NCBI GenBank assembly: GCA_045837725.1
Contig: JBEWZL010000278.1
Location: forward strand, 486,092-506,091
DNA length: 20,000 nt
Origin: Vermamoeba vermiformis
Taxonomy: Eukaryota
Reading direction: 5' to 3'
The number at the start of each line of letters is the position of its first letter. Position 1 is the stretch's first letter. The translations under genes were made by a program, and so were the position numbers. The notes beneath the pieces were generated by a model that was not told where the DNA came from, did not search any database, and was given only the letters and a program-made list of their open reading frames with translations. Below are positions 3,978 to 20,000 of this stretch, in pieces.

Positions 3978-6900
3978 ATGGAAGAGACACAGGGCAAAAA
4001 GAAGCGGAATAAAAGAGGCGGTGGCGTATACGAGCATGGGTTAATAACGGAATATGAGTCAGAACCATCTAAAGACAAAAAGAAAGAGCAAAAATTGGCA
4101 GAATCAACCTATAACGATCTACCAACGATTAATGTGCCAGGGAAAAACGAAGACGCGCCAAATTATATTGAAGATACGCAGACTGAATCAGAGCTGACGA
4201 AAATTGCAAATACAAAAATCTGTAAGGAATTTTAATTTTTGATATATTTTTAAAAGCGGTAGAAGGCATCGTAAATTCGGTTAAAATGTCGAAATATAGA
4301 GTCCAAAAAATCGTTCGATACTAGTTATAGCATTGCTAATTTATTATTTTGGTGCAGCACCGAGATCCACGCCCAGATCGAAAATTGATACTGAACAATT
4401 AAACAAAATATTGGTCAAAATGCCCAAATCTCAGCTCAAGGAGCTAATCACCGACGTTATTAATATTGACGATGAAATGATGATATTGATTAAAAAATAC
4501 GCCGACGCTCAGGCGAACTTGCGCATCCAACCTTTCAAGAAAGATTGGAACAAGGATTATCAAGCGATATTGAGTGAACCCGACAGCGAGAGCAAATTCA
4601 AAAAGCTTTATCATTTAGCCCACGATTTCGTTTACGCTGCCAATACGTTCGTGTCACTTTTGTATCTCCTCGTAATCTCGCTAACCTACGACTTAACAGG
4701 TACGCTAAAATTATCATCTCAGAACTGGCCTTGCCTCCTGACGAAAAAACAATAGAGGTAAGCTATAAACGATAAATTACAATGCATTCTCACACGTACT
4801 TCAGTTGATGGACATTGGAGGTATCGCAGGTGGCACGTAAGTCGAGCACTGCATCGATTATTTAAGATAATAACGTCTCGTAGTAAATTTGTGTGTCAGA
4901 ATATTCTGTTCAAGTTCGTATTGGATTTTGAATTGAAGCAAGGCCTGTGGATGTACGGAGGAGACTCTAGGAACGACGAATATGTACGACGAGCGACCGC
5001 CACTCGTGGTCAATCCATACTAACGTTGCATATATTGTAGGCGATGAAGGCTGCAGCACATGAGCTGAAAGGATTGATTGGCTATTATTCTTGCAACATT
5101 CCAGGTCTCAACTTTCCGTTGATGGCGATGATCGATTACAAAGGATTCCGTGTAATTGCAATGTCCATTCTTCCGATCAACTCAAAAACAATTAAATATG
5201 GTAAGTGTACGAAGCAGCACTGCCTAGTTAGCTAACAAGCTTAATTAGGTTCGAGTGACGCCGGAACAAATGTTCACTGCGACGTACCTGAGCTAAACGA
5301 GAAAATGGATCGTGCTGCAACGATTTTAAACTTGAAGAAGCATGTGATTGGTGCCCGTGAAGGCAGCAACATTCGGTTGAGCAGTCCCGGTGATTTGGAA
5401 GGACATTTGGGTCTCGTAAGTTATTTCAGCACGTGAACTTCGTTGACTTAGTCAACTCATATTATGTAGGACGGGCGATTCTACTTGCTAGATTTCGCAA
5501 GGACCTTACCACCTGAGGGCCCTGATGTTGAGTACGTCCACCATGCTTTAATGAATTTTACTAACGTTTGTAGTCCTAAATTCCGCGAGAGCCGACAGGT
5601 TTATTATAAGCTGCTACGACAAGAGGTAAGCAAATCACTATCAATCTGACTAATACGCATGATTTGCTAACTAGACTTGTAGTTTGTTCGTATTTGGCCA
5701 ACGCCTTTGTGTTCCGATGCATTCACGGCCTGGCAGAAAAATGATCCCGAGAAACAAGTAAGCACACGGTACCATAATGCATTGAACCTAACGTCGTTGT
5801 AGCAAAATGATTTGGAGATAATGAAGGCCACAAAATATTTGATGACACGTGCCATTCCTGATTTTGCGGACAAATTGGACAAACTGTTGCCTAATGAAAG
5901 TGCTAGCAGTCCGTCTTTCGTTATGAATAGGGCTGCTTTCGCTGCCGAATTTGCAAAGATTCACAAGCAGTTTGATTTCTCGCGGGATTTGGACCCGAAC
6001 AAAACCGCTGCAGGAAGTAGCGCGCAGTCTTTGGAGATCAATCACACGATCGAAGAAATGCATCGACATGGTATCAACATCAGACATCTTGGGCTGCTGA
6101 GGACGTTCTCAAGGTCTAAGCCCGTCAAACGATTGCTCTTATTGGAAATGGTGGCACGCGTCATCAAAGACGTTCTGAGGTCTCAAATGAGAAACATTAT
6201 GCGAGAGGTTCGAGTGTTGTCAGAAGAACCGTTCAAGCAGATTGTATTGAAGACGTTCAACTACACTCTTGGCCGCGATCCCCAATCAGCGAAGTTTTGG
6301 GCAATCGTGAAAAATCGACTGGTTCGCAAATTCAAGAAAGCCCTGGCAGACAACGAGCTTAATGTAAGTTAAAGTCTTGTTATTGATAATACTAACACCC
6401 ATAGACCGATTTGCACGATTCGATCAACATGTTCTCGCTATTTTCGCGATTGCAAGAGCTCGTTGGAGTAGAGCTTACGTCAGAAGCGAAGCAAGAGTTG
6501 CGCGATTTCCCTGATAGCTTTGAGTTCGTAAGCTCTGACGTGCTCGAAGTCTATGCCAAGGTCAAGCACTTGAACATTATCGATTATGCCGGTATGTTGT
6601 ATTACGTTCCATATAAGTATTACGTGCTAATTATAATCACAGAGGGCATGGCTCTGTCTTTTATGGCTAAGAAAACTGACGGCAAAAGAGAGCGACTACG
6701 CTTGCTGAAACTCAGTTCACAGAAGTTCGAAAGTGCTTTGCGTGCTCTTCCCGACAGCTTCATGACGCTGTATCAATGGGGTTGCGTGCTCGTAGAAGAA
6801 GCCAATATGAACGTTGCAGCGAAGGCTCAGCAGAGCTTGGAGAAGGCCTGCGAAAAGTTCCGTGAGGCCATTATTATCAACCCGAAATTTCAGGAATGTC

Positions 6901-9900
6901 AACTGCGGCTGGGTGACGCATTGATTCAACTCGCCAAGATGAAAACGACCACCGATGTTAGAAGCAGAGTAATCAAGAAGCTTTACAAACAAGCTAGCGA
7001 AGAGCTCCGCAAATCACTGGACATCAATGTAGACTTCAAAGGTTTCGAGTCGGTCTTCCAACGCATTCAAACAATGTACATTACTGCTTCGGACGACAAA
7101 GAGACTTACAAGCGAAGAAAGATGATGTTCTACGGAATTTCCAAGATCTGCAAGCACCTCTACAATCAATTGCTACAGCATCGAGAGGCTATTCTACGCG
7201 TAGATCAAACTTCCGTAGAAGCACTGGGAAGGCTCGAAGAGATGCAGAAGATTATGGACGAGCACGGAGAGACTTTGAAGGCGATTCAAGACCTTGATTT
7301 TGCAAATGTCAGCAATACGAACAACAAAGAGACTACAGCGACTAGACCGCGTTCAGGATCAACTGGAGGAGTGAATCCATTGCGTGTTTCGGCAAAAGCG
7401 AAGAATCCGTTGTACGTGCCGGGTTTTCGTGGTTCAATTGACATCTTCGGAGCGAAGGCAGCGAACAATAATTATTCGCAGCCAGTAATGAGCAAGTCAA
7501 AGTCTTTAACAGCGACAAACTCCGAAGACAAAGATTTGTACGGTGGTGATCCTCTCTACAACCAAGCAATGGAAGACGATGAATTAAGTCAACTGTTCCG
7601 AGGCGCTTACACCGAGGAATTGTCTCCAGTTCCCAGCACTAGCGGTAATGACACGCTGCCGTCACCTCGTTCAAAGTTTAGCAAAAAGCCAGGCTTACTA
7701 AAGACCAAGTCCACCTCCGCTCCAAAGATTCAGCGACACCGTAGAACTGTGTCTGATCCACTCGGCAAAGAAGATATGACTTACGAAGATCGAGTTGCTT
7801 ATTACAACAGAATAACTACGGAAGTGACTAGCATTTGGAGCGATTCACTGCTTCAATACGCCTCTATGAAGAAGTCGTTTACCTCGGCGGAATCTTTGTT
7901 CACCAAATCAGCCGACGTTTTGACTAAGCTCATCGCCATCGATGCTAAAAATGACGATGTTATTCGTAGAAACGTCGAGTATCTCAAGACTAAAGCAAAG
8001 GGTACGTGCATAGCTCGCTCTAATTCGAGGATCTAATCTCATTCTTGCAGCAAATAAAAAGCTTCACTTCGCCATCTCCGAGCTGTACAAGGTGCTCGAG
8101 AAGCAAGAAAACCATAAGAATGACGAGTCAATGCTGTACGCTTGGGGAGAGTGCTTGTTGGAATACGCGTCGTGCTTTTTCACGGAAATCGAACGGTTCA
8201 CCCAACTGCACGCCGAAGCCGGTCAGAAGTTCGAGCGATTGTTGAAGATATCTTCAACGTATTTGGATAATTATGTTATCAATTTGCTTTGCAAGCAAGA
8301 CAGGTAAGGGTCCTTATTAGTACTCTACGAAAAACAACTAACAAATGTTGTTTCAGAACGGCTCTCGAGCAATTGATCCTGCTCCTTCCTTCATGCCCTT
8401 CGTTCCTGGAAAGAATTAAAGCGTTGAGTGACAAGTTCACTGCGATTAGTTTTGAAGGCAGCTCTCAATTGACAGGTATTATTATTATATTGATTTGTTC
8501 ATGAAACCAAGCGCTAATCCGTGCATCGAAGATGATATCTTGGACCAAATCTTGCCAGTGCTCCCTCACTTGCAAGAAGTCAATTTCAGCTTCGTGAAGT
8601 CTGTCACCGATAGCAGCTTGGCGGTTATTGCCAAGAAAGCGCCGCAATTGCAAAAAATCAACCTTTCCAATTGTACAAATATCACTGACGAGGGTATTCT
8701 CGTGATGTGCAGCAATTTGAAAGAGCTTCAAGAGATCAACTTGGCAAATTCGAGCATCACTGACGAATCCGTGCAACACTTGGTGACACATTTGCCGAGT
8801 AAGTTGATGCTAGCGTATTGTTGACAGCTAACGAATGTCGTTGTAGAGCTGAAGAAGCTGGACTTGGAACGTTGCAAGATTACCAATGCAGCTCTGCGGC
8901 ACATCGCTCAGGCTCGGAGTCTAGCGTGTTTGGAAAGTTTATCGTTCAATCGCTGTTTGAAAATCGAAGACTCAGGCCTTGCTGCGTTTGAAACACGTAA
9001 GTACTGCAGATTAATTTCGCGTTGCTGGGTTAGCTAACTTAAATTCGAAGAAAAATGCCCGAGCCTGAAGAATATCGAATTGAACGGTTGCTCACAGCTC
9101 ACTGTAGAAGCAATTCGTTCTATTCTTGTGTCATTTCCGAACCTCACAAGCTTGTCCCTCGAATCGGACTACAGCATCAATGACGAGTGCGTCAGCATTA
9201 TCAGCGGCTTGACAAAGTTGGAAAAGTTAAATATGCGCAACACCAAGGTCACGAGCAAAGGCTTGGTCCACTTGACTGCTTTGCTCAACTTGACTTATTT
9301 GGATATTTCAAAGTGTCCTATTTTGCCGAAGATCAAGGAGGCCAACAAAGTGCCCGACGCCTCTTCCTCGCAAGATTTCACGCCCGAGGAGCCCGGCAAT
9401 TTCTCTAGTAAGATTGATACCGTATTGCAACGTATTTATACTAACGACGTTTTCAAGCATTGGTACACAATTTCGAGGGAATTGAACGTGAAGAGTTGAT
9501 CGAGGTTGACAAGTCGTTGGAGGCATTCATGGAAGTAGTAGGACCTCGCCTTAACACGCTGTTGATGGCACAGTGTCCTACGATACCGAATTACTACTTC
9601 TCGTTGCTGGGCCGCAAGCTAGTGGGACTGTTGCAGACTCTCGACTTATCAGAGAACCGCGAATTGACTACGGAGGCGCTCATTAGCATCACAAAGGGAT
9701 CTCCAAACTTGGAAAGTCTTACGCTTGACGCGTGTCGGTTGACGGATACCGGTGCATTTGCTATCGCAGACAACTGTCTGAGAATCAAACACTTGAACTT
9801 GTCGCGATGCAGCGTATCGGATAGCGCGTTGAGTTACTTGGGTTTGAAGTTGAACAAGTGTCAGACGTTAATCTTGGCCGGCAATTTTGCCATGACAGAT

Positions 9901-11224
9901 AAGGTAATAGCACTTCGGATAGAATTCCATTAGCTAACTCGTTGCTAGGCAATGACCTCAATCGCCAATCATATGAAGAGCTTGAGACATGTTAATGTGG
10001 GCTCTTGCAACAAAATTAAGGTAAGCCTTCGAATCCACGAGTACGTGATCTAATACACAACTGAAGGACGACGGAATAATAGACTTGCTGTACGCCATTC
10101 CTGAAGTCGAGTTCATCAACTTGGAGAACTGCAACATTTCAAATCGCACTTTACAGAAGATCGGCGCAATTTGCACGAACTTGAAGACACTTATTATTGC
10201 AAGGTGTACTACGATCAATGACGGTGGTATTGAAAACTTGGTGTCCGGCTCCAAGACGTTGCGCAAGCTAGATCTAACTGGACTCAACTTAATCGGTGAT
10301 AGAGTACGTTAATTCAACGGTGGATTGCAAAGTTTGCTAATGTTCTCGTAGGCATTGATCGCCATTGCAAAATATTTGCCGTACTTGGAGCACATTGTGT
10401 TGAAGAACTGCGACAACGTAACTGAAAAGGGTATTGCGACGTTGGAGTCGAACAAATCCTTGAAGTCGATGATATTGCCTGAAAAGGATTTCAAGTTAAT
10501 CAAGGTAGGTTGTCGCTGTTTAGGATAACGAGTATATTAACATCTATCTAGGAACTCGGAAGCGCTTTGAAAGATCCAAAAATCAACACGCTGATCTACA
10601 AACCTATTTTGATCAACTCTGCAGAAAAACGACGAAACCCGTCGGTCGGAGGTAATACACCTGTAACCAACCATTTTATCGATGTTAATTTTTGCTGTAG
10701 AAGCGGAACTGCTTGAAAAGCACGCAACCATTCACAAGCGCCGTAGACAGTTGCGAAAAGAGAGTACTGGCGAATTGCCCGAAATGCCATTACAGTTGTC
10801 AGTCTCTGTTACCTCTGACACGGGCTCTGAACTGTCAACAAGTACCAACTTGACTGATTCTGACTCCACGGCACAGAACTCTCCTCGAGCTTTTCGAATT
10901 AATTCCCCACTTCAATCGAGCAATTCTTCTGTACAGGCTCCCAACTCGCCTCTCTTGACCCCTAGATCTCCTCGCACTTACGTAGATTTCAACACAAAGT
11001 TTACGTACAAAGAACTCAGTGCTAAGGAGAAGCCAAAAGACTGTGATGCTCAGAACTTAGAGGTATGGAAATTCTGCTGTTACTTTCCAATTCTAATATT
11101 CCATCTGTAGAAATACTTGAATGAAGAGGAGTTTATCAAAGTATTTGGTACAACATCTGAAGAGTTCTACAAGTTGCCAAAGTGGCGACAAAATCAAAGG
11201 AAAAAGGACCTAAAGTTGTTTTAA
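3978..11224 (+). CDS. Clu-domain protein with TPR-like helical repeats, RNI/AMN1-type leucine-rich repeats and a C-terminal villin headpiece
   Basis: Clu-type motifs after splicing: DWNKDYQ, HDFVYAA, GIAGG.KF, KAAAHELKG, PLMAMIDYKGFR, YGSSDAG, DLEGH..DGRFYLLDFAR. TPR-like WG..L segments lie at ~6.7-7.1 and ~8.1 kb. LRRs such as LQKINLSNCTNITDEG span ~8.5-10.5 kb. The C-terminus ...NLEKYLNEEEFIKVFGTTSEEFYKLPKWRQNQRKKDLKLF* is a villin headpiece. About 20 short introns. Confidence 0.88.
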
Positions 11225-11809
11225 TTAATTGTAAATAATAGTTGTAAAATGTTTTTAATCAATTTTGTTTTGGATTATCTTCATTATGTAGCTGTGCAGC
11301 ACCTAACTGTCTCCAATTGAGTAATAATGCAGCTACTCAACATGTTGACTGTGGAATTCTGTTGGTGAGAATAAATTTGTGTTTCTTCACTATGAATAAA
11401 TTATGTGTAGTTTTAATTTTTTGCTTTCTCCTCCATGAATACACTTAAAAAATAAATAGCTCACTTTAGTGTATTTCTGAGCATAAATATTTTGTAAGGG
11501 GTTAGGGTTGATAGATTTTGGAGTCTAGTTTTTCATTGTGTGGTAGTACAGTGTATCTGTTGCTATTGGATCTAGTAGAAGGATTTAAAACCGTGTAGTA
11601 CACAATAGTCTGTTCACAGTGGTGGAATTCTTGCAGGAACATTGTCAATTTCCTGTGGGCAAACAAAAAATTCTGTGATGAAATCCTTTACTAAGTTATC
11701 ACTATGGAAATTCGCTGCACCAAACAAATAGTGGCTAAGCCTCCTTTGCTAATTATTGTATTACACTAAGAACAACAGTTGTGACTGTGCTGGTCATGAT
11801 TAAATATTG

Positions 11810-12190
11810 TTGCTGCCAAGTATGAGATTCATCAGCTGTTGGAAGGTGGCAGGTGTATTTGTTAGACTGAAGGACATGATGTTATATTTGAATGAACCCT
11901 CCTCTGTGATGAATGCAGTCTTTTCTTTGGCCTTTCTGCTAGTTCAATGTGATAGTGTGATGTTACAAGATCAAATGTTGAGAAATATTTCATATTTCAT
12001 ATTCTGTCAAATCTCTTGAGGTTGTCATCAACCAAAGGGATTGGAAAGATGTCCTTCTTTGTCACTGTGTTCAATTGTTGATAATCCACACGAAAGTGTT
12101 TTGTTCCACCCTTCTGGAACAACAGGTTTTTTTAACAAATTAAATATGGGCTGTTTTTTTTGGTCCACGTAGAGTTCATGGTTGGACCCT
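11810..12190 (-). mobile_element. Degenerate Ty3/Gypsy LTR-retrotransposon reverse transcriptase fragment
   Basis: Minus-strand translation with frameshifts reads FRVDYQQLNTVTKKDIFPIPLVDDNL..MKYFSTFDL..HYHIELAE..KEKTAFITEEGSFKYNIMSFSLTNTPATFQQLMN. This matches the Gypsy RT consensus VDYR.LN..T.KD.YPLP.ID / YFS.LDL / KTAF.T..G / MPFGL.NAPATFQR.M. It breaks off before the YxDD motif. Confidence 0.9.
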
Positions 12191-12293
12191 ATTATCAGTT
12201 GCTGATTTCCCTCTGTTGAAGAGAAATAAAGAATTTACGAGGGAAAAAGGTAATTCAATGTATTTATTTTTAACGAAATCAAGGAATGACTTG

Positions 12294-13889
12294 TTATTTG
12301 AACTTTTTGAGCAGATCAGGGCAGTCTAATGCCTCTTCAGGTAACCATTCATTGTACTGATTACTCCAACCAGACCACTTCACTAGATATTCATCACCAT
12401 GAACTCCTCTACGTTTGTCTACTAAATCTTCTACCTCATATTCTTCAGTTGATTTTACCTCTGCTGCTTTATACTTGACTTTTCCAGTTTGCAAATCTCC
12501 AGAAATAAATTTGTTGTGACATTGATCAAAATTCCATGCTAAGCATTCTGAACAGAAGCATGGTCTCTTTCAATGTTTGATTGTTCCAACTTGTTCCGAA
12601 AAGATGAAATCATAGGAAGCCTTGATGCCTTTTAAAGGAGTGCAGTCATCTTCTTCATCATCAGAATCATACTCAACCAAAAAAGTGGGGCCACCTGGAA
12701 CAGTATCAAAGTGATCTGCAAGCTCTTGGGCATTATTGATGTGAGCATCATCTTATAAAGTGAATTAGCTCTGGTAAATTAAGGAGTAACTTACTATCTA
12801 GTAAAAATAACCTAGTATTGGATTTCAAAGTTGCACCTCTGCCATCACAAGAACCTTTTCCATGGTATGCAGGATCTACAGCCCATCTGAATCGGAGATG
12901 GAACAGGTTCCAAAACTTGCATATAATGCCACGTGCTTTTGAACCATCTGCATTTTTGGTTGTCCATCGATTGAATTTGAAAGTTTCTTGTCGAATAGCC
13001 AGAGATTCTTTTGGACAACGTGAAGAACTGCAGGACTCGCACCAAAAGGCACATTGATTGCTGTGATTGCACATTTGGGGTGAGCAAAAATCACAGTTGC
13101 AACTGCAATTTCGATGCCAAATTCTGCGTTTTGCATTTAAAAGAACAGCCATACTGTGAAAATTGCTGCAATGGAAACATAGTCCACTCCGTAACGGTTT
13201 TACAACAACATAATTTGGAATCAAGGAGTAAAATGCACTGGCAGAGAAGGCAGGATAATCCTTGTGAGATAGCTGAAGCATTGTAAGTGGCTGTAACAAC
13301 AACAACTATTCAAACTTACACGGCATTCGTTAAACATTGCACAAATTGGCTTTAATCTGTAATGCTTTGGTCTTTTGATCCAAACTCCCTGCTCTTTGAC
13401 TTGAAGAGTGTTTTTCATGTCAGCAGTCTCTACAGTATTGTTGTTGATCCAAGTTATAATAGAACTCTTGAGCTGAGGTTGAATACGTGTAACAGAGTAA
13501 ATGGCACGACTGACATATGGACGCGGATGTTGGTTATTATTGATATCCTCCTGAATAGATCCTTGTAATTCTATTGCTGATTTCACACTCCGCCAATCAA
13601 CGTTGAACAGTGTAGCAAACTGGTCAATTTTGGCTTCAGGCGAAACACATGCTGCTAAAATGCCACGAAATTGACCAGATTTGTGGTGATACTGTGCGAC
13701 TTGGTGCAAGCAACAACTGATGTTGAAACACACTAGAGTTTTTAATTTGGCTGAGACAAAGTCCGATAAACTATCGGAAAAACAAGGTTGCTTGACTACA
13801 TCTGATAAACACTTTGCCCTAGCAGTAATGGGAACTGACATCAGGATGTGTGTAATTGCTTCTATTTGTTGTTTGTAATTTTTTGACAT
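12294..13889 (-). pseudogene. Sola2-like DNA transposase pseudogene with C-terminal chromodomain; internally deleted, one premature stop
   Basis: Introns at 13319-13273 and 12794-12752 (possibly also 13733-13692) join the ORFs. Motifs in order: SAFYSLIP.YV...GLCFHCSN, a Cys-rich stretch, W....YHGKGSCDGRGATLK (12842-12864), I.NA.E, KGIK.SYDF, *KRPCFCSEC, then the chromodomain EYEVEDLVDKR...EYLVKWSGWSNQYNEWLPEEALDCPDLLKKF. In-frame TGA at 12572-12570. The Sola2 assignment rests on my recall of the HGKG.CDG motif. Confidence 0.78.
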
Positions 13890-14056
13890 AGCAGCAAATC
13901 GCAGCGCGGTAACGCGTTAATAGTGACAAAAATAGAACGGAGTTGTGGTGTTCATAAATTAAAAGGTTATATTTTGGTTAATTTGCTAACGGGTCAATTC
14001 TACTGGGGCTAGTTATCGCTGGAATACCGAAATAATTTAATCGCTGACGAATCAAG

Positions 14057-14172
14057 CACCAATGCGTTGAAAATTCGGAAAAATATGTAAAGCATCCAAT
14101 CAGACGTCGTACATAAACACGTGCCTGATCACGTGCTGTTCCGAGCTTGTGATTGGTTGTGAAAAGCACGTG
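14057..14172. promoter_or_regulatory. Candidate bidirectional promoter with CCAAT boxes and three CACGTG motifs
   Basis: CCAAT near 14059 and 14096, inverted ATTGG near 14152, and CACGTG at 14118, 14130 and 14167. It lies between the transposase ATG (-) and the candidate ncRNA (+). Confidence 0.4.
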
Positions 14173-14539
14173 GATGTAGATCGCGAAGAAATTGGGAATT
14201 TATTGATTTTCATTTTGTCATTAATTTTTGACATAGACAACACATGTCACATCTACCAGTTAGTGAAGTCCTCTCTTAGGGGGATATTATTAAAAAATGG
14301 GTCGATCGTACACACGTTGAGATCCCGCTTGCAAGAATGACCGTCACAGGTACGGACATAAATATTAATACTATACATATTGCGATCCGTTGGAAAATAT
14401 TGCGCTTGTCATAAATTTCATTTCGTTTTACTAAATTTAGAACATCAACAACAACGCGCCACCGCGCTGCAACTCATATAATTTTTACTGTTTAATTGTC
14501 TAATTGGTGGCGAATAACTTTTGGCACGCTATATTTTTC

Positions 14540-16000
14540 GTTGTGGTGGCTCGATCTGTCAAACGTCAAAACAGATCATCGCATCGGGTTATCAAGGTAA
14601 ATAACCGATTTAAAAATGATACGACAGTCAAATATTGATGATTTTAGAATATTCCACGTAGCACGAGCAAACAAGTAAGCTATTAATTTAATTAAATCAT
14701 TTGAAATTCATCGCATCGAAACGCGGTAAAGCGCTACGATTCGTTAATATTATATTATGATTATTCAGTTACCATTATTAACATTAGTTAATAAAAGTAT
14801 TTTGCACGGTCATGTTTCAACACCGCCAAATCCCAAAGCTTGACAGCGAAGAATCGCAGTAAGTTACGTCTTTATTTAATACGAGTATACAAAATTAACA
14901 ATTATCTAACTGTGCAGATTGAACGGCGTGGCTGCGTATAAATAGCACGATCTGTTTCACACGTCAAACCCCTGTCCGTTTACACGTCGTCTACACTGCC
15001 TGTAAGTATTTTTTTACCATGAATGTAATAATAAACCAGCTAAATACGTTATTACGTAGTATACACGGCAGTGGTGACTGTTAATTCGACTGCCTAGATT
15101 GTTCAATGTTCCGTTCGGAACGCTACATCGCTGACATGTCACGAATCGCTTGGCGTGTTATGTAAGATCAATTATTTCGTTCAATAACATTTATTAATAG
15201 CACTAATAGAGTTGGCTGCGCCACGAAACGTTTCGCGCATCACGGATCCCTCTCTTTTTGCGTAAAACGAACGCGAGAATGTCTTGCAATCGCCGCTGTT
15301 GCTGCAGAAATAGATGGCAATACATTAAACCTTAGAAAACGGGCATTCGTAAGTTGTTATGAACGATCAATTCATTCAATTTATACACTAACACCGATCT
15401 GAGCAGCGTCTCAGCCGCGCGATCTGCGATCACGTCGCCGTTCTGAACAACCAGTCGCGTGGGACTATTGAAAGCATAAATAGATTTGAATGCTCTATTT
15501 TCATTGTAATGAAAACCTGCAAGCTGGTTCGTTCACGCGATCCGTTTCGAGTTTAGTGGCCACGAAGCCTTGCTGTAAGTAAAACCCTTGTCAAGTGATA
15601 TTTAATTGATATTAATACACTATTTAGGTAAGTAACAACTTGCTGCGGTTAGCAATTCACGTGTGAGAGTCGCGACTCGATCGAGGATGTTGCGCGATCT
15701 GAGACGGCTCAGGACGAATCTTTTTGGTAAGAATTTATTGCTAACAATGATTAAAATACAATGTTATTAATGCATTGACTTTAGCACTCGGTGCTGTCTT
15801 CGGGCGGCTGATCCAACTATGGTTCGTTGATCGCGATCCATTTCGTGTTGCGTTAATGCCACATCGCTCAGTATCATGGCCATATCGTGTGCACAACCGA
15901 CTGCTACGTCATTAGAACACCGTGCCTTTCGTGGAATTAGAATTGATGTGTGTAACTTTACCTTGCAACAGATCGAGGTGCGTGGAGTTTTGCTTATTTT
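14540..16000 (+). ncRNA. Candidate spliced, structured long non-coding RNA (7 predicted introns); ends approximate
   Basis: AT-rich GTAAG/GTAAA...AG introns at 14597-14647, 14675-14768 (or 14787), 14859-14917, 15002-15059, 15162-15209, 15349-15406, 15575-15627 and 15727-15784. The first is the weakest; the other seven have GTAAG donors. They alternate with GC/CpG-rich exons. Exons 14918-15001 and 15060-15161 have stops in all three frames. Many stems include G-U pairs, and one has a C(UUCG)G loop. Confidence 0.62.
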
Positions 16001-16016
16001 TATTTATTGTATACGC

Positions 16017-16118
16017 GAATCGGGACGCGTTAAAGCGCCCCGATTCCCAATTTCAGCCTGTAATTTGACTATTATTGGCAAATTAACAGAATCGGGGCGC
16101 GTTAAAGCGCTCCGATTT
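16017..16118. repeat. Two copies of a 30-nt hairpin motif (12-bp stem, GTTAAA loop)
   Basis: GAATCGGGACGC-GTTAAA-GCGCCCCGATTC at 16017-16046 and GAATCGGGGCGC-GTTAAA-GCGCTCCGATTT at 16089-16118. Confidence 0.9.
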
Positions 16119-16172
16119 CCTATTTTGCGTAGATTATTAAACAATTTCTAATAATTTATGGAATTGAGACAC

Positions 16173-16463
16173 TATAGTAGGCTTCTGGGTTATAAAAACC
16201 CACAGGTTATAGAGTTTAAAGAGGCCTTAAACTCGTTTTTTGTTGAACTTTTTCGCAAACATTCTTTTTATTTAAACTCATGTTCAAAATAGCTAAGTCA
16301 AACAAGTTAAATAGAATAATATAAAATGGGTCACTTTGTTTTATTATAGTAGGCTTCTGGGTTATAAAAACCCCCTGGTTATAGAGTTTAAAGTCCCTTC
16401 AAACTGTTTTTTTGTCAAACTTTTCTGCACAGATTTTAGAAATTGATAGTAGCTAAGAACAAG
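16173..16463. repeat. Diverged direct duplication, period 172 bp
   Basis: TATAGTAGGCTTCTGGGTTATAAAAACCC...GGTTATAGAGTTTAAAG begins at both 16173 and 16345. Similarity continues to TAGCTAAG at about 16290 and 16450. Confidence 0.9.
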
Positions 16464-16559
16464 AAGAGCATTCATATATGTAAAAGGGCTTGGCCATATA
16501 GGGCTAGCCCTGCAGAACCTGACAATAAATAGATATTTGAGTAGGAATTATGCGTGGTG

Positions 16560-16616
16560 ATTTTTACTTAGGAAAATTTTTACTTAGGAAAATTTTACTA
16601 AAGGAAATTTTTACTT
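16560..16616. repeat. Short tandem repeat, ~16-bp unit TTTTTACTTAGGAAAA, ~3.5 copies
   Basis: Read directly: tttttacttaggaaaa tttttacttaggaaaa ttttactaaaggaaa tttttactt. Confidence 0.9.
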
Positions 16617-16684
16617 GAGAAAAACTGATCCACCCGTGTAAGTTGGAGGATTCAAAAAAACTAAGGCTCAGTGGACAGTCTTAT

Positions 16685-16921
16685 GAAAAAATAAAGTCCT
16701 TAGGGGTCGTCTCCACGCGGAGACGATCTCGAGAAAAAACAAAGTCCTTAGGGGTCGTCTCCACGCGGAGACGATCTCGAGAAAAAACAAAGTCCTTAGG
16801 GGTCGTCTCCACGTGGAGACGATCTCGAGAAAAAACAAAGTCCGTAGGGGTCGTCTCCACGCGGAGACGATCTCGAGAAAAAACAAAGTCCGTAGGGGTC
16901 GTCTCCACGCGGAGACGATCT
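16685..16921. repeat. Tandem array of five 48-bp units, each containing a strong stem-loop
   Basis: Unit GAAAAAACAAAGTCCTTAGGGGTCGTCTCCACGCGGAGACGATCTCGA starts at 16685, 16733, 16781, 16829 and 16877. The core palindrome is TCGTCTCC-ACGC-GGAGACGA. Confidence 0.97.
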
Positions 16922-17305
16922 GGCAAAAAAACTATGGATCGGCCGTCTACATCTGACTGAAAAAACAAGTCGAACGAGTCGCTACGGCAATCTGCAGCGA
17001 TAAAAGTTAATAAATTGGATTGTATTTATTAAATAATTAATATAACCGGTACTTACCAAATAAAGAGTGGGCGAGCACGTTTTAAATCGTGGATCGGTTC
17101 TAAAATACAAGATTAGATTAATAAATAAACATAAATTAAATTTAATCTCAATGCAAACCGCCGCGAATATGTAAATGATCGGAACCAATTTGTATCCGGA
17201 TTCAAAAATAAATAAAAAATTAAAATTACACTTACTATTAGCGCCAAGTAGTGTTGCTTTCGTTATTCGTGAATAAATAATACCAAGCCGGCACGAACAT
17301 GACCT

Positions 17306-17343
17306 GTCACGTCAAGTGATTCGTCACGTGATATGTCACGTGG
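17306..17343. promoter_or_regulatory. Cluster of three GTCACGT(G) motifs upstream of the orphan gene
   Basis: GTCACGTC at 17306, GTCACGTGAT at 17323 and GTCACGTGG at 17335, about 280 bp upstream of the ATG at 17623. Confidence 0.4.
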
Positions 17344-17622
17344 GTTGTTCACGAAAAACAGAAACAAACTTTTGGTAATTTACCGTGCTAAAAACAATAG
17401 CGTGTCACCACAAGTGGCGCGTTTTGTTAAATATAATTGCGATACGAATCCAACAGATTCTATTGCAATTTAAAGTTTAGATCGTCGATCAAAAATCGGC
17501 GCATCTAAATTATCTGCTAAGCCTCCAAAAGAGGCTTAATTTTATATCTATATATCGAATCATCGCCTATAAATTCCGTTAGTAAAACGGAATATTACAA
17601 GACAAATTTAGATTCGATCAGA

Positions 17623-20000
17623 ATGGTAAATATTATTTAAAATTTCAACCTTAGTTTAGTGACACAAATAATTAAAAACAAGTTTTTATATATTGTATTT
17701 TATTTTATTAGTATTTTTACAGTGCTAATGCTTTTTATAGAACAAGTCCAAGACATCGACCTTGGATTCTATCAGAACTTACGTGACGTTCTTCGTCCTT
17801 GCTCGCAACCGTTTGGCACCAGGCGGAAGTACGGAAGCCTACGTCACCAAGTTGCACGACAGCCTGCAGTACTTTGGCACGTTTGGCCGCAGAGCAGATT
17901 TCGTCTTTTTCTACGTCCTGTTTGATTTTCATGGAATGCTGCCCTCGCTCCCAGACCGCACTCCCGTCTATCCAACGTGGTACAAGACTTACCGCCAGAC
18001 ACTCGCCGATACACTTGGAATTGCTATTGGCGCAAATCCGACATGGCAAGAATTTTCCGAGTTCATGCAAGGTTTTCCAGTGTTTCTGGAACTTGCTCAA
18101 CGAGAAATCTGCATGTGGAACGTAACGAAGAATATCGCGAACAATGTCAAAGAAGAAAACGACCGAATTCACGAAGAACACGCAAAACTTTGGAGAGCGA
18201 TGCGCTACAACCTGAAACACTGGTCGTCCCTCACAGCTTTGCGTGCGCTTCTGACATTCATTGGCTCTGCTGAATGTCAGTATGGCGTGCCGTTGTTCTC
18301 GCAGTACACTTCCTACGATACAAAGCCCGCAAACGGTAAGTCAAATTCGGATCCATTTGTAACGGTCACTAATAGTTCGTAACTTAGGTGCTCAGAGTTC
18401 TACAACAACAACAACTGTACCCGATCAATTCAAATTTGTAGAGATTGGCTTTATTCCGGGCTGCACAGGAGTAGGCTACGAGTGGTTTCATCTGCCTGAG
18501 TTCAATTCACGCCCTGGTGTATTTGGACACTACAAGCGGAGAGGAGAAGAACTTCCGCCCACTAACACCAAGAAGAGGCGTATCGAAGCCGTCCCCGAAG
18601 CCACCCCCGAAGCCGTCTCTGAACTAGAAATTGGAGGCAACAGTCCTACAGGGAGCGTTGACTTGTTCTTACTCGAGTCAAACGACAACCCTGAGCCGTC
18701 TCAAAGCCCTGTACGCAGTCCAGACTTTAACAATGAAATGCCCGTGAGTAAAAACGTATAATACACTTAATAATCGTTTAATTGATTCGTTTTAGAGTTC
18801 GCCTTTCCGTCCTCCAACTCCAGATCCGATCATTGCTACAAATACTACTGCGGTTGTTACAAACCCTGCCAAGCATCCGATTGCCGAAGCAATACGAATC
18901 AGTAAGTCACAAACTGTCAAAATTAACTCAACGGTAACATTTTTCTTCAGCTCCTACTGCTAAGGTCCGCGTACCTCGCAGCACGGGACTTACCACTGTT
19001 GGTCCTCCGGCTGTCTTTGAAGATATCCGCGGAGAGAGGCACAGCCGTCTAAAGGTGGAGGATTGCACGGTGAACCTCTATGAATTTGGTACAATCAATT
19101 TGGTCGACCAGACCGTGTGCCGTGAGCTGTACCTGAGATGCGTCAACCTGGCCCCAACTGGAGCGTCCATGACCGCGGCTGCTGTTAAATTGTAAGTATT
19201 TTAGTATTATCTAAACCGAACTAATACCAAAATCAGCATACTTCGCCAGCGAGTGCTGTATTTCGAAGACGTAGATTCAGAGCTAGTGGCGAAGTTGTGT
19301 CCTGTGTCTTGCAAGTCTGTCCAAGCCCTGTACATCAAAGACATCTCGAAGCCATTGGTGACTTACGGTTTTGGCAACCATACGTGGCAGCAGTTAAAAT
19401 TCCTTCACTTGACACTCTGGCCAGGACAGGCAGTTCAAGTCTTTCAAAAATTGGGCGAATCCGTTGGTCAAGTTCTCAACACCATCTTTACCGTGGCCCC
19501 TAATCTAATGGGAGTTCGATTGCCCATCGCAAACGAAGATTCGTCGAAAACGGCTTCCTGGGAGATCTCTCTGACAGGTGTCACTTTTCCTCCGGAATTT
19601 CTACTTTTGGAACTGGAATCACACTGCCCTGGAGTCTACATCGACTTGCGCGATTTGAATCAACTCCAGCTTCGTCATCTTTGCCTGGTTAATATCTTTG
19701 TCTCCCCACTCGAGTTTCACGAAGAGGTAGATCCTCGCTGCGTAGATCTTAAAGTTACAGGCCCGAAATTATACATTGGTGGCCGTAACTTGATTAATAC
19801 GCTTAGTATTATGCGGCACATACTGCAACATCGTCCGTAAGTCTTCCTCCGCAGTTTTGTTAAAGTCAACGCTAATTTATTTATGTAGGTTCCGCTTTCA
19901 TCCTCGTGCTCTAGTTCCTCAGCTAATCTATCCCCCCGCATTGTTTTCCATCGAATGGAGTTCTCAAGTGGGTGCTCAAGTTCATGGGAAATACTACATG
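17623..20000 (+). CDS. Intact multi-exon protein of unknown function (3' partial), with a possible NLS and a degenerate LRR-like C-terminal region
   Basis: An ATG at 17623-17625 is directly followed by intron 17626-17740. Further introns start at 18336, 18744, 18902, 19193 and 19837 and keep one open frame: MNKSKTSTLDSIRTYVTFF...TKKRRIE...Pro/Ser/Thr linker...LKFLHLTL...LRHLCLVNI...RFHPRALVPQ. Confidence 0.82.

Follow-up and report, generated by a model that had tools for sequence, protein, structure and literature searches.

An intron-dense, apparently non-coding locus in Vermamoeba vermiformis with host-type splice signals and no excess RNA structure

We analysed a 20,000-nt stretch of the Vermamoeba vermiformis genome (assembly GCA_045837725.1, contig JBEWZL010000278.1, positions 486,092 to 506,091; hereafter the window, in whose own numbering all positions are given). 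Its GC content is ~0.41, and that of the Vermamoeba vermiformis genome is given as 41.7% in a table of PMC10980511. The subject of this study is a locus on the + strand, between about 14.2 and 16.0 kb, in which short CpG-rich segments alternate with short AT-rich ones bounded by GT and AG. A sequence-only reading of the DNA had proposed a multi-intron, structured, non-coding RNA gene at this place. No open reading frame (ORF) longer than 106 aa is present on either strand between 14000 and 16150, and the limits of the neighbouring genes fall outside this interval, so the locus has no overlap with a protein-coding gene. In the DNA contigs, 13515-16096 forms a single piece with a depth of 29.

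Eight candidate introns are recognisable on the + strand, seven of them 48-59 nt in length and the other 94 nt; seven open with GTAAG, and all eight close with AG. This agrees with the sequence-only reading, which had counted at least seven host-style introns of mostly 48-59 nt with GTAAG donors and AG ends, and the number exceeds chance, as detailed below. Scored with a position weight matrix (PWM) model of host introns, they are: intron 1 (14597-14647, 51 nt, GTAAA donor, GC 0.25, PWM total 9.9); intron 2 (14675-14768, 94 nt, 10.3); intron 3 (14859-14917, 59 nt, GTAAGT donor, CTAAC 13 nt from the 3' end, 13.5); intron 4 (15002-15059, 58 nt, GTAAGT donor, 13.4); intron 5 (15162-15209, 48 nt, 12.2); intron 6 (15349-15406, 58 nt, CTAAC 20 nt from the 3' end, 12.2), with a further CAG acceptor 8 nt downstream, at 15414; intron 7 (15575-15627, 53 nt, 11.1); and intron 8 (15727-15784, 58 nt, 11.1). 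The earlier claim that some introns carry CTAAC stands for three of them (those starting at 14859, 15349 and 15727), but only in two does the motif lie near the 3' end. For intron 7, alternative acceptors at 15652 (PWM total 4.1) and 15685 are possible, because the next exon opens with GTAAGT (TTTAG|GTAAGT). The junction at 15623-15633, an acceptor followed at once by a consensus donor, has the form of a recursive splice site or a zero-length exon. Further upstream, a possible extra intron (GTACGG...TTTAG, 14350-14441, 92 nt) is weak and uncertain, with a PWM total of 1.0 and an acceptor score of -5.5.

As a yardstick we used the introns of the gene at 3978-11224 on the same strand, which encodes CLU, eIF3_p135 and LRR domains in one protein (CLU-LRR gene). 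The closest relative of this protein comes from EukProt: a transcript-derived sequence of 1921 aa, itself Vermamoeba vermiformis by accession, which is 85% identical to a 543-aa query exon of the gene and covers 98% of it. This protein was aligned to the window, and GT...AG pairs were picked that restore its sequence. The 22 introns supported in this way are 41-57 nt long in 21 cases and 136 nt in one, with a GC of 0.29-0.49; their donors are GTAAG (13 of 22), GTACG (4) or other (5), and CTAAC or CTAAT stands near the 3' end in 12 and 5 of them, respectively. The joined exons, from 4360 to 10651, read through 1768 codons with no stop, while the two other frames hold 110 and 94 stops. These 22 introns served as the training set of the intron model, which combines donor, acceptor and branch PWMs with a length term.

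The candidate introns resemble the verified ones in size and donor, and their splice signals appear to fit those of the host: their PWM totals of 9.9-13.5 compare with 5.6-17.9 (median 14.7) for the true introns when each is left out of training in turn. Between 14597 and 15784, all eight copies of GTAAG lie on the + strand and none on the - strand, against an expectation of 1.3-1.7 copies (Poisson probability 7e-5 to 4e-4); in 2000 dinucleotide shuffles a count of eight was never reached. Composition, which the PWM model ignores, changes sharply at the boundaries: GC is 0.22-0.34 in the candidate introns and 0.37-0.51 in the exons between them, and CpG observed/expected (o/e) in the exons is 1.27-1.93. 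The mean exon-intron GC contrast is 0.20 for the candidates versus 0.066 for the verified introns. A simple pattern of GT[AG]AG, AT-rich sequence and, at 42-109 nt, an AG was also searched for; with a flank-minus-intron GC contrast of at least 0.15 it has six matches within 14859-15784 and two on the entire minus strand of the window (Poisson ~1e-9). Given the strand bias of GTAAG, the GC contrast and the fit to host introns, the candidate intron pattern is real and beyond chance as a sequence signal.

The nine segments delimited by these introns cannot be joined into a coding sequence. The first (14442-14596) has an uncertain 5' limit, carries CGATCTG at 14552 and contains a 7-bp hairpin (GATCTGT/ACAGATC); it is followed by a 27-nt exon between introns 1 and 2 (14648-14674), an exon with an AT-rich palindrome (14769-14858), and one between introns 3 and 4 (14918-15001) with CGATCTG(N)ACGTC at 14948-14965. 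The exon at 15060-15161 holds the stems GGCAGT/ACTGCC and GTTCC/GGAAC. After a sixth exon (15210-15348) come 15407-15574, with CGATCTG(N)ACGTC at 15420-15436, and 15628-15726, with CGATCTG at 15695. The last recognisable exon (15785-15977) has an uncertain 3' limit; it contains TGTAA at 15951 and an ATG at 15876 that stays open up to GTGCG at 15978.

Taken from 14540 to 15977, the spliced product is 959 nt long and has 10, 12 and 16 stops in its three frames; TAA, TAG and TGA each occur in every frame, and six of the nine exons are closed in all three. With stops of all kinds and six exons closed, no choice of phase and no reassignment of stops opens the product. An alternative genetic code was rejected on the same grounds, and the neighbouring CLU-LRR gene is open over its 1768 codons in the standard code. 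The exons were also scored with a codon model made from that gene: the log-likelihood ratio (LLR) per codon of the locus is -0.17 to -0.19 in all frames, while held-out coding sequence scores +0.24 and the downstream gene +0.11 and +0.12. Even when the best frame is taken for each exon and stops are ignored, the value is -0.031, which 98.4% of shuffled exons equal or exceed. All 500 length-matched samples from each coding gene lie higher, with minima of 0.077 and -0.005. At most 121 codons in a row are free of stops, a stretch that includes a 114-codon ORF from ATG (MFRSERY...) over the exons in 15060-15574. The exons are thus non-coding, and the earlier description of CpG-rich exons without a continuous ORF is confirmed.

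Homology searches point the same way. Eight ORF pieces within the locus matched no Pfam family at E-values up to 1, and a piece just upstream (14071-14340) gave only a sub-threshold match to DUF2434 (E 0.072). The ORF of the sixth exon, the one exon frame searched, has no relative among 5.8 billion proteins. The sequence-only reading had named a BLASTX match to a decayed protein gene as what would speak against it; in local blastx and blastn comparisons of the locus with the sequences gathered here, no match was better than E 0.17.

The locus carries short words that are strongly oriented. All six copies of ACGTC within it are on the + strand; CGATC occurs 10 times there and 3 times on the - strand, and CGATCTG and GCGATC each five times and once, while the same words are symmetric in the rest of the window. 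CGATCTG is found 10 times in the window versus 2.2 expected, with six of the 10 inside the locus, and the composite CGATCTG(N3-10)ACGTC has three copies, all in the locus and on the + strand, versus 0.01 expected. In addition, a 30-nt element occurs twice, at 15525-15553 and 15820-15849, with 87% identity; a degenerate pattern made from it had no match in genome contigs or in viral contigs. Tandem duplication of exon units was considered and rejected: self-comparison returns this one 30-nt repeat only, and Tandem Repeats Finder reports none in the locus.

A repeat of another kind lies just beyond the last exon, where a palindromic element of 29-37 nt (GAATCGGG..GCGTTAAAGCGC..CCCGATTC) is present as inverted copies at 16017-16046 and 16089-16117, 42 nt apart. 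Candidate intron 2 contains, at 14713-14749, a 37-nt copy with 70% identity to the element as it stands at 16017-16053 and 16089-16125.

The sequence-only reading had further held that the RNA is selected for folding. The seven stems and the 8-nt long-range complement on which it based this are all present where it had placed them, but comparison with dinucleotide shuffles, the check it had itself suggested, revealed no excess structure on the + strand. The minimum free energy (MFE) is -289.5 kcal/mol for the spliced + strand (z -1.18, matched by 10 of 60 shuffles) and -305.5 for its reverse complement (z -2.31, matched by 1 of 60). Several stems had been said to need G-U pairs on the + strand: two do, but since the reverse complement folds better, the + strand gains no advantage from G-U pairing. 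Averaged over 100-nt windows, z is -0.29 on the + strand and -0.31 on the - strand, compared with -0.35 to +0.46 for five coding controls, and only the first ~175 nt (the exons within 14540-14858) go below -2. The eight exons tested have z values of, in order, -1.14, -2.75, 0.08, -0.99, 0.00, 0.40, -0.32 and 0.55. Seven of them are thus ordinary (-1.14 to +0.55), and the exception is the palindrome-bearing exon at 14769-14858, which 3 of 200 shuffles match.

Counts of stems give a similar picture. Local stems of at least 6 bp number 114 versus 107 +/- 10 in shuffles, and those with Watson-Crick pairs only number 7 versus 12.8. Perfectly complementary 7-mers are in excess (57 versus 38 +/- 8 expected, a count that 3 of 200 shuffles reach), which we attribute to the repeated GATC-containing motifs and their complements. 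Selection for folding is therefore not supported, as there is no excess stability globally, per window or per exon, and short stems picked by eye in 1 kb of CpG-rich sequence are no evidence of structure. The locus was correctly described as belonging to no recognisable family: a search of the whole window against Rfam gave no match at the gathering score, and in E-value mode four matches, all on the minus strand and far under the gathering score (best E 0.33). The idea of a telomerase RNA was rejected, with no template-like repeat found on reading the sequence and no Rfam match.

Upstream of the first exon lies a CpG-rich, promoter-like region (14096-14195), with CACGTG at 14118, 14130 and 14167, CCAAT/ATTGG at 14096, 14152 and 14191, and a CpG o/e of 1.52 in 14001-14500; we read it as a putative promoter. 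Across it, a minus-strand ORF with its ATG at 13889 faces the locus. This ORF begins a chain (13889-13221, 13305-12748 and 12569-12294) that ends in a chromodomain (Pfam Chromo, E 1.5e-13); Pfam finds no further family in the chain, and a sequence search of solved structures with two of its ORFs returned nothing below E 0.5. The chain belongs to a CpG-depleted block on the minus strand (11001-13900) inside an otherwise CpG-rich window: in 11001-13500, which adjoins the locus, CpG o/e is 0.12-0.47, with TpG and CpA in excess. By bin, CpG o/e is 1.4-1.9 in the locus and 1.0-1.6 in the genes, the locus standing at the top of the window except for 17001-17500. The depleted block resembles a repeat, either methylated or foreign, or a gene derived from a transposable element. 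An 18-nt inverted repeat, 89% complementary, with arms at 13901-13918 and 14453-14470 (534 nt apart), encloses both this putative promoter and the beginning of the locus.

Beyond this block lies the CLU-LRR gene, with at least 22 introns, mostly very short (41-57 nt), and a strong CTAAC branch site. We read the C-terminal end of its product as a villin headpiece, a domain that is likewise present in a second relative with 37% identity. On the other side of the locus, DNA from 16170 to ~17900 has a depth of 100-480 versus 29, which marks it as repeated. It includes a 91-nt direct repeat (16173-16263 and 16345-16435, 84% identity, depth 360-480), apparently of a dispersed family, and 5.2 tandem copies of a 48-nt unit that contains a 20-nt palindrome (16685-16932); a word depth of ~380 here, versus 29 in unique DNA, points to a high-copy family.

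A multi-exon gene of an unnamed family without a Pfam match follows on the + strand at 17741-20000; with a DNA depth roughly double that of the locus, it is possibly duplicated. A HMMER search with the exon at 17741 returned 14 cluster representatives in 1.84 billion proteins, with 28-58% identity among full-length matches and a conserved N-terminal motif (...YV.F.VLARNR...ADF.FF.V.FDFHG.LP), and a search among longer proteins gave no match. This exon starts in phase 0 without an ATG, after a good acceptor (4.8) and branch site (5.7). Between it and the locus is a second CpG-rich CACGTG cluster, at 17300-17345, with a CpG o/e of 2.11 in 17001-17500. A protein-atlas comparison of both neighbouring exons was uninformative, with best values of 0.92 (unnamed or TPR clusters) and 0.76.

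Three RNA runs carrying the same species label contributed 0, 4 and 1 partial reads to 13500-18500 at 95% likeness, and the neighbouring coding exon was bare too. The bare runs could be accounted for if the label covers a divergent strain: within the CLU-LRR gene, relatives from metagenomes reach only 73-79% DNA identity. The few partial reads of two runs fall in the same bins in both, 17174-17340 and 17675-17841, which might point to splicing, in the downstream gene, from a first exon near 17300 to 17741, though the reads are too few to be evidence. A metagenome scan anchored on the neighbouring LRR exon yielded two contigs, of 4706 nt (L001) and 1553 nt (L002), both of which end inside the CLU-LRR gene.

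What kind of locus has host-type introns and no frame? One answer is a pseudogene of long standing, unitary or duplicated, that descends from an intron-rich protein gene and is still transcribed and spliced but has lost its frame, and several features suit it: the intron density and exon GC of 0.47-0.51 are like those of a coding gene, each exon has 0-1 disabling changes in its best frame, and long intergenic non-coding RNAs (lincRNAs) usually have few exons in the survey of PMC4739763. We nonetheless consider a pseudogene unlikely, as the best-frame codon score described above leaves no residual codon signal, the Pfam and protein searches found neither a family nor a relative within the pieces and the single frame they covered, and eight near-consensus donors are not expected in an ancient dead gene unless splicing is still under selection. 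In any case, a spliced pseudogene transcript also counts as a long non-coding RNA (lncRNA). The converse idea, that a living small-protein mRNA is at hand, rests on the 114-codon ORF, the longest in the spliced product, which would be translated between intron-rich untranslated regions (UTRs) on both sides. It is very improbable: 17.7% of 1000 shuffles contain an open stretch as long as the 121 codons around this ORF, the ORF has a codon LLR of -0.04, under the minimum of true coding windows (0.065), it has no homologue and no Pfam family, and two introns would fall downstream of its stop.

The exons might instead belong to the downstream gene, as a multi-intron 5' leader with a 34-codon first coding exon joined to it by a 1763-nt intron (15978-17740). 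The fit at the ends is good, with the ATG at 15876 open for 34 codons to a phase-0 GT at 15978 and the 17741 exon beginning in phase 0 and requiring an upstream ATG, and a once short intron could have swollen by repeat insertions, given the repeated DNA at 16170-17900. Yet a GTGCG donor is used by none of the 22 verified introns, 21 of which are at most 57 nt long and thus quite unlike 1763 nt of repeats, and nine introns in a 5' UTR would be extreme in itself. Seven of the 14 homologues were read: those with intact N-termini start 5-15 residues before the IRTYV/YLE..ARNR motif, two begin inside the motif, one has an apparent intron read-through, and none has a 34-residue extension. Such starts fit a first exon of a single codon, with M+NKSKTS from ATG|GTAAAT at 17624-17627, or the ATG at 17299 with a donor at 17317, and the CACGTG cluster at 17300-17345 is separate from that of the locus. 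We regard a leader as distinctly unlikely. Finally, there may be no gene here at all, the pattern being a product of chance or a relic in a CpG-rich regulatory region whose oriented ACGT and GATC motifs are DNA sites, with no splicing. ACGT-core and CACGTG motifs are indeed dense at the locus and at 17-18 kb, and the excess by the full PWM model is only about fourfold over the antisense background. An absence of any gene is, however, quite improbable in view of the eight-to-none distribution of GTAAG between the strands, which no shuffle reproduced, and of AT-rich segments that have sharp GT...AG limits and the size of host introns.

The reading we favour is that of an independent, divergently transcribed, intron-dense spliced non-coding RNA, to which we give an even chance. 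Such a transcription unit would run on the + strand from ~14.2 to ~16.0 kb, starting at the CACGTG/CCAAT region near 14100-14200, head-to-head with the minus-strand chromodomain ORF, and splicing of its 9-10 short exons across 8-9 short introns of the host type would give a non-coding RNA of ~1.0-1.1 kb. Its transcription and splicing, its start and end and its mode of action are what we infer from the arrangement of the signals. If the RNA has a function, a global fold is a less probable basis for it than short motifs on the RNA strand or transcription and splicing themselves. Our best guess at a mode of action is that short RNA-strand elements, namely CGAUCUG (five copies) and CGAUCUG(N4-9)ACGUC (three copies), would act as protein-binding sites in the manner of a decoy or scaffold lncRNA, possibly combined with the act of transcription and splicing beside the CpG-depleted repeat. 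A bolder version, which we think unlikely, is an amoebozoan intron-dense non-coding gene kept for splicing and for CGAUCUG(N4-9)ACGUC, serving either as a protein decoy or scaffold or as a transcribed boundary that would separate the CpG-depleted, possibly methylated repeat at 11.0-13.5 kb from the CpG-rich unique DNA.

Several observations weigh against an independent non-coding gene. The protist survey of lincRNAs used for comparison here is that of Creolimax fragrantissima, in which 692 lincRNA loci are reported, 19.1% of them with two or more exons, and in which lincRNAs have fewer and longer exons and a lower GC than coding genes (PMC4739763). Like these lincRNAs, the locus is intergenic, lacks coding potential, is apparently head-to-head with a neighbour and has no sequence relatives found; unlike them as they are described there, it has 9-10 short exons, a coding-like GC and a CpG o/e near the top of the window, and it is predicted from sequence alone. 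Because the Creolimax lincRNAs have few, long, low-GC exons, the architecture of the locus is atypical for a lincRNA and more gene-like. Further, the open last exon, running from the ATG at 15876 to a phase-0 GT, fits the phase-0 start of the 17741 exon. Enrichment by the full intron model is modest: in the 1.78 kb of the locus six sites reach a PWM total of 11 on the + strand and two on the - strand, and the entire minus strand of the window, with 17 per 20 kb, sets the expectation at ~1.5; the CLU-LRR gene has 25 and 7 per 7.2 kb on its + and - strands. CTAAY stands near the 3' end in three of the eight candidates as opposed to 17 of the 22 verified introns. The motif patterns, lastly, were chosen post hoc, after inspection of the sequence.

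Host genes of small nucleolar RNAs (snoRNAs) of the GAS5/UHG type have many introns and spliced exons without a reading frame, and in both respects the locus is like them. A snoRNA host gene was nevertheless rejected: introns of 48-94 nt are too short for a snoRNA with its flanks, and Rfam reports no snoRNA at the gathering score. Some lncRNAs, among them meiRNA of fission yeast and NORAD of mammals, act as decoys or scaffolds and carry a short protein-binding motif in several copies. The locus shares with them several copies of one short motif on the predicted transcribed strand and needs no global fold, but its motif was picked post hoc and has few copies, so the resemblance lies in a possible mechanism only and not in membership. 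With transcribed unitary pseudogenes it has in common a gene-like exon-intron architecture and the lack of an open frame; it differs from them in that neither a parent protein (one exon frame in the large search) nor residual codon bias was detected.

A spliced lncRNA is in itself a known kind of gene product, and it is in its number of predicted exons that this locus is unusual. If the bolder version of the reading is true, the locus would represent a class of lncRNA with gene-like architecture, of which none was found described for Amoebozoa in the literature searched. If expressed, it would be a protist lncRNA built like a protein gene, with strong donors but with no frame and no special fold. 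One may then ask why a non-coding transcript should retain eight introns: selection on splicing, short RNA motifs, or inheritance from a dead gene may each be the reason.

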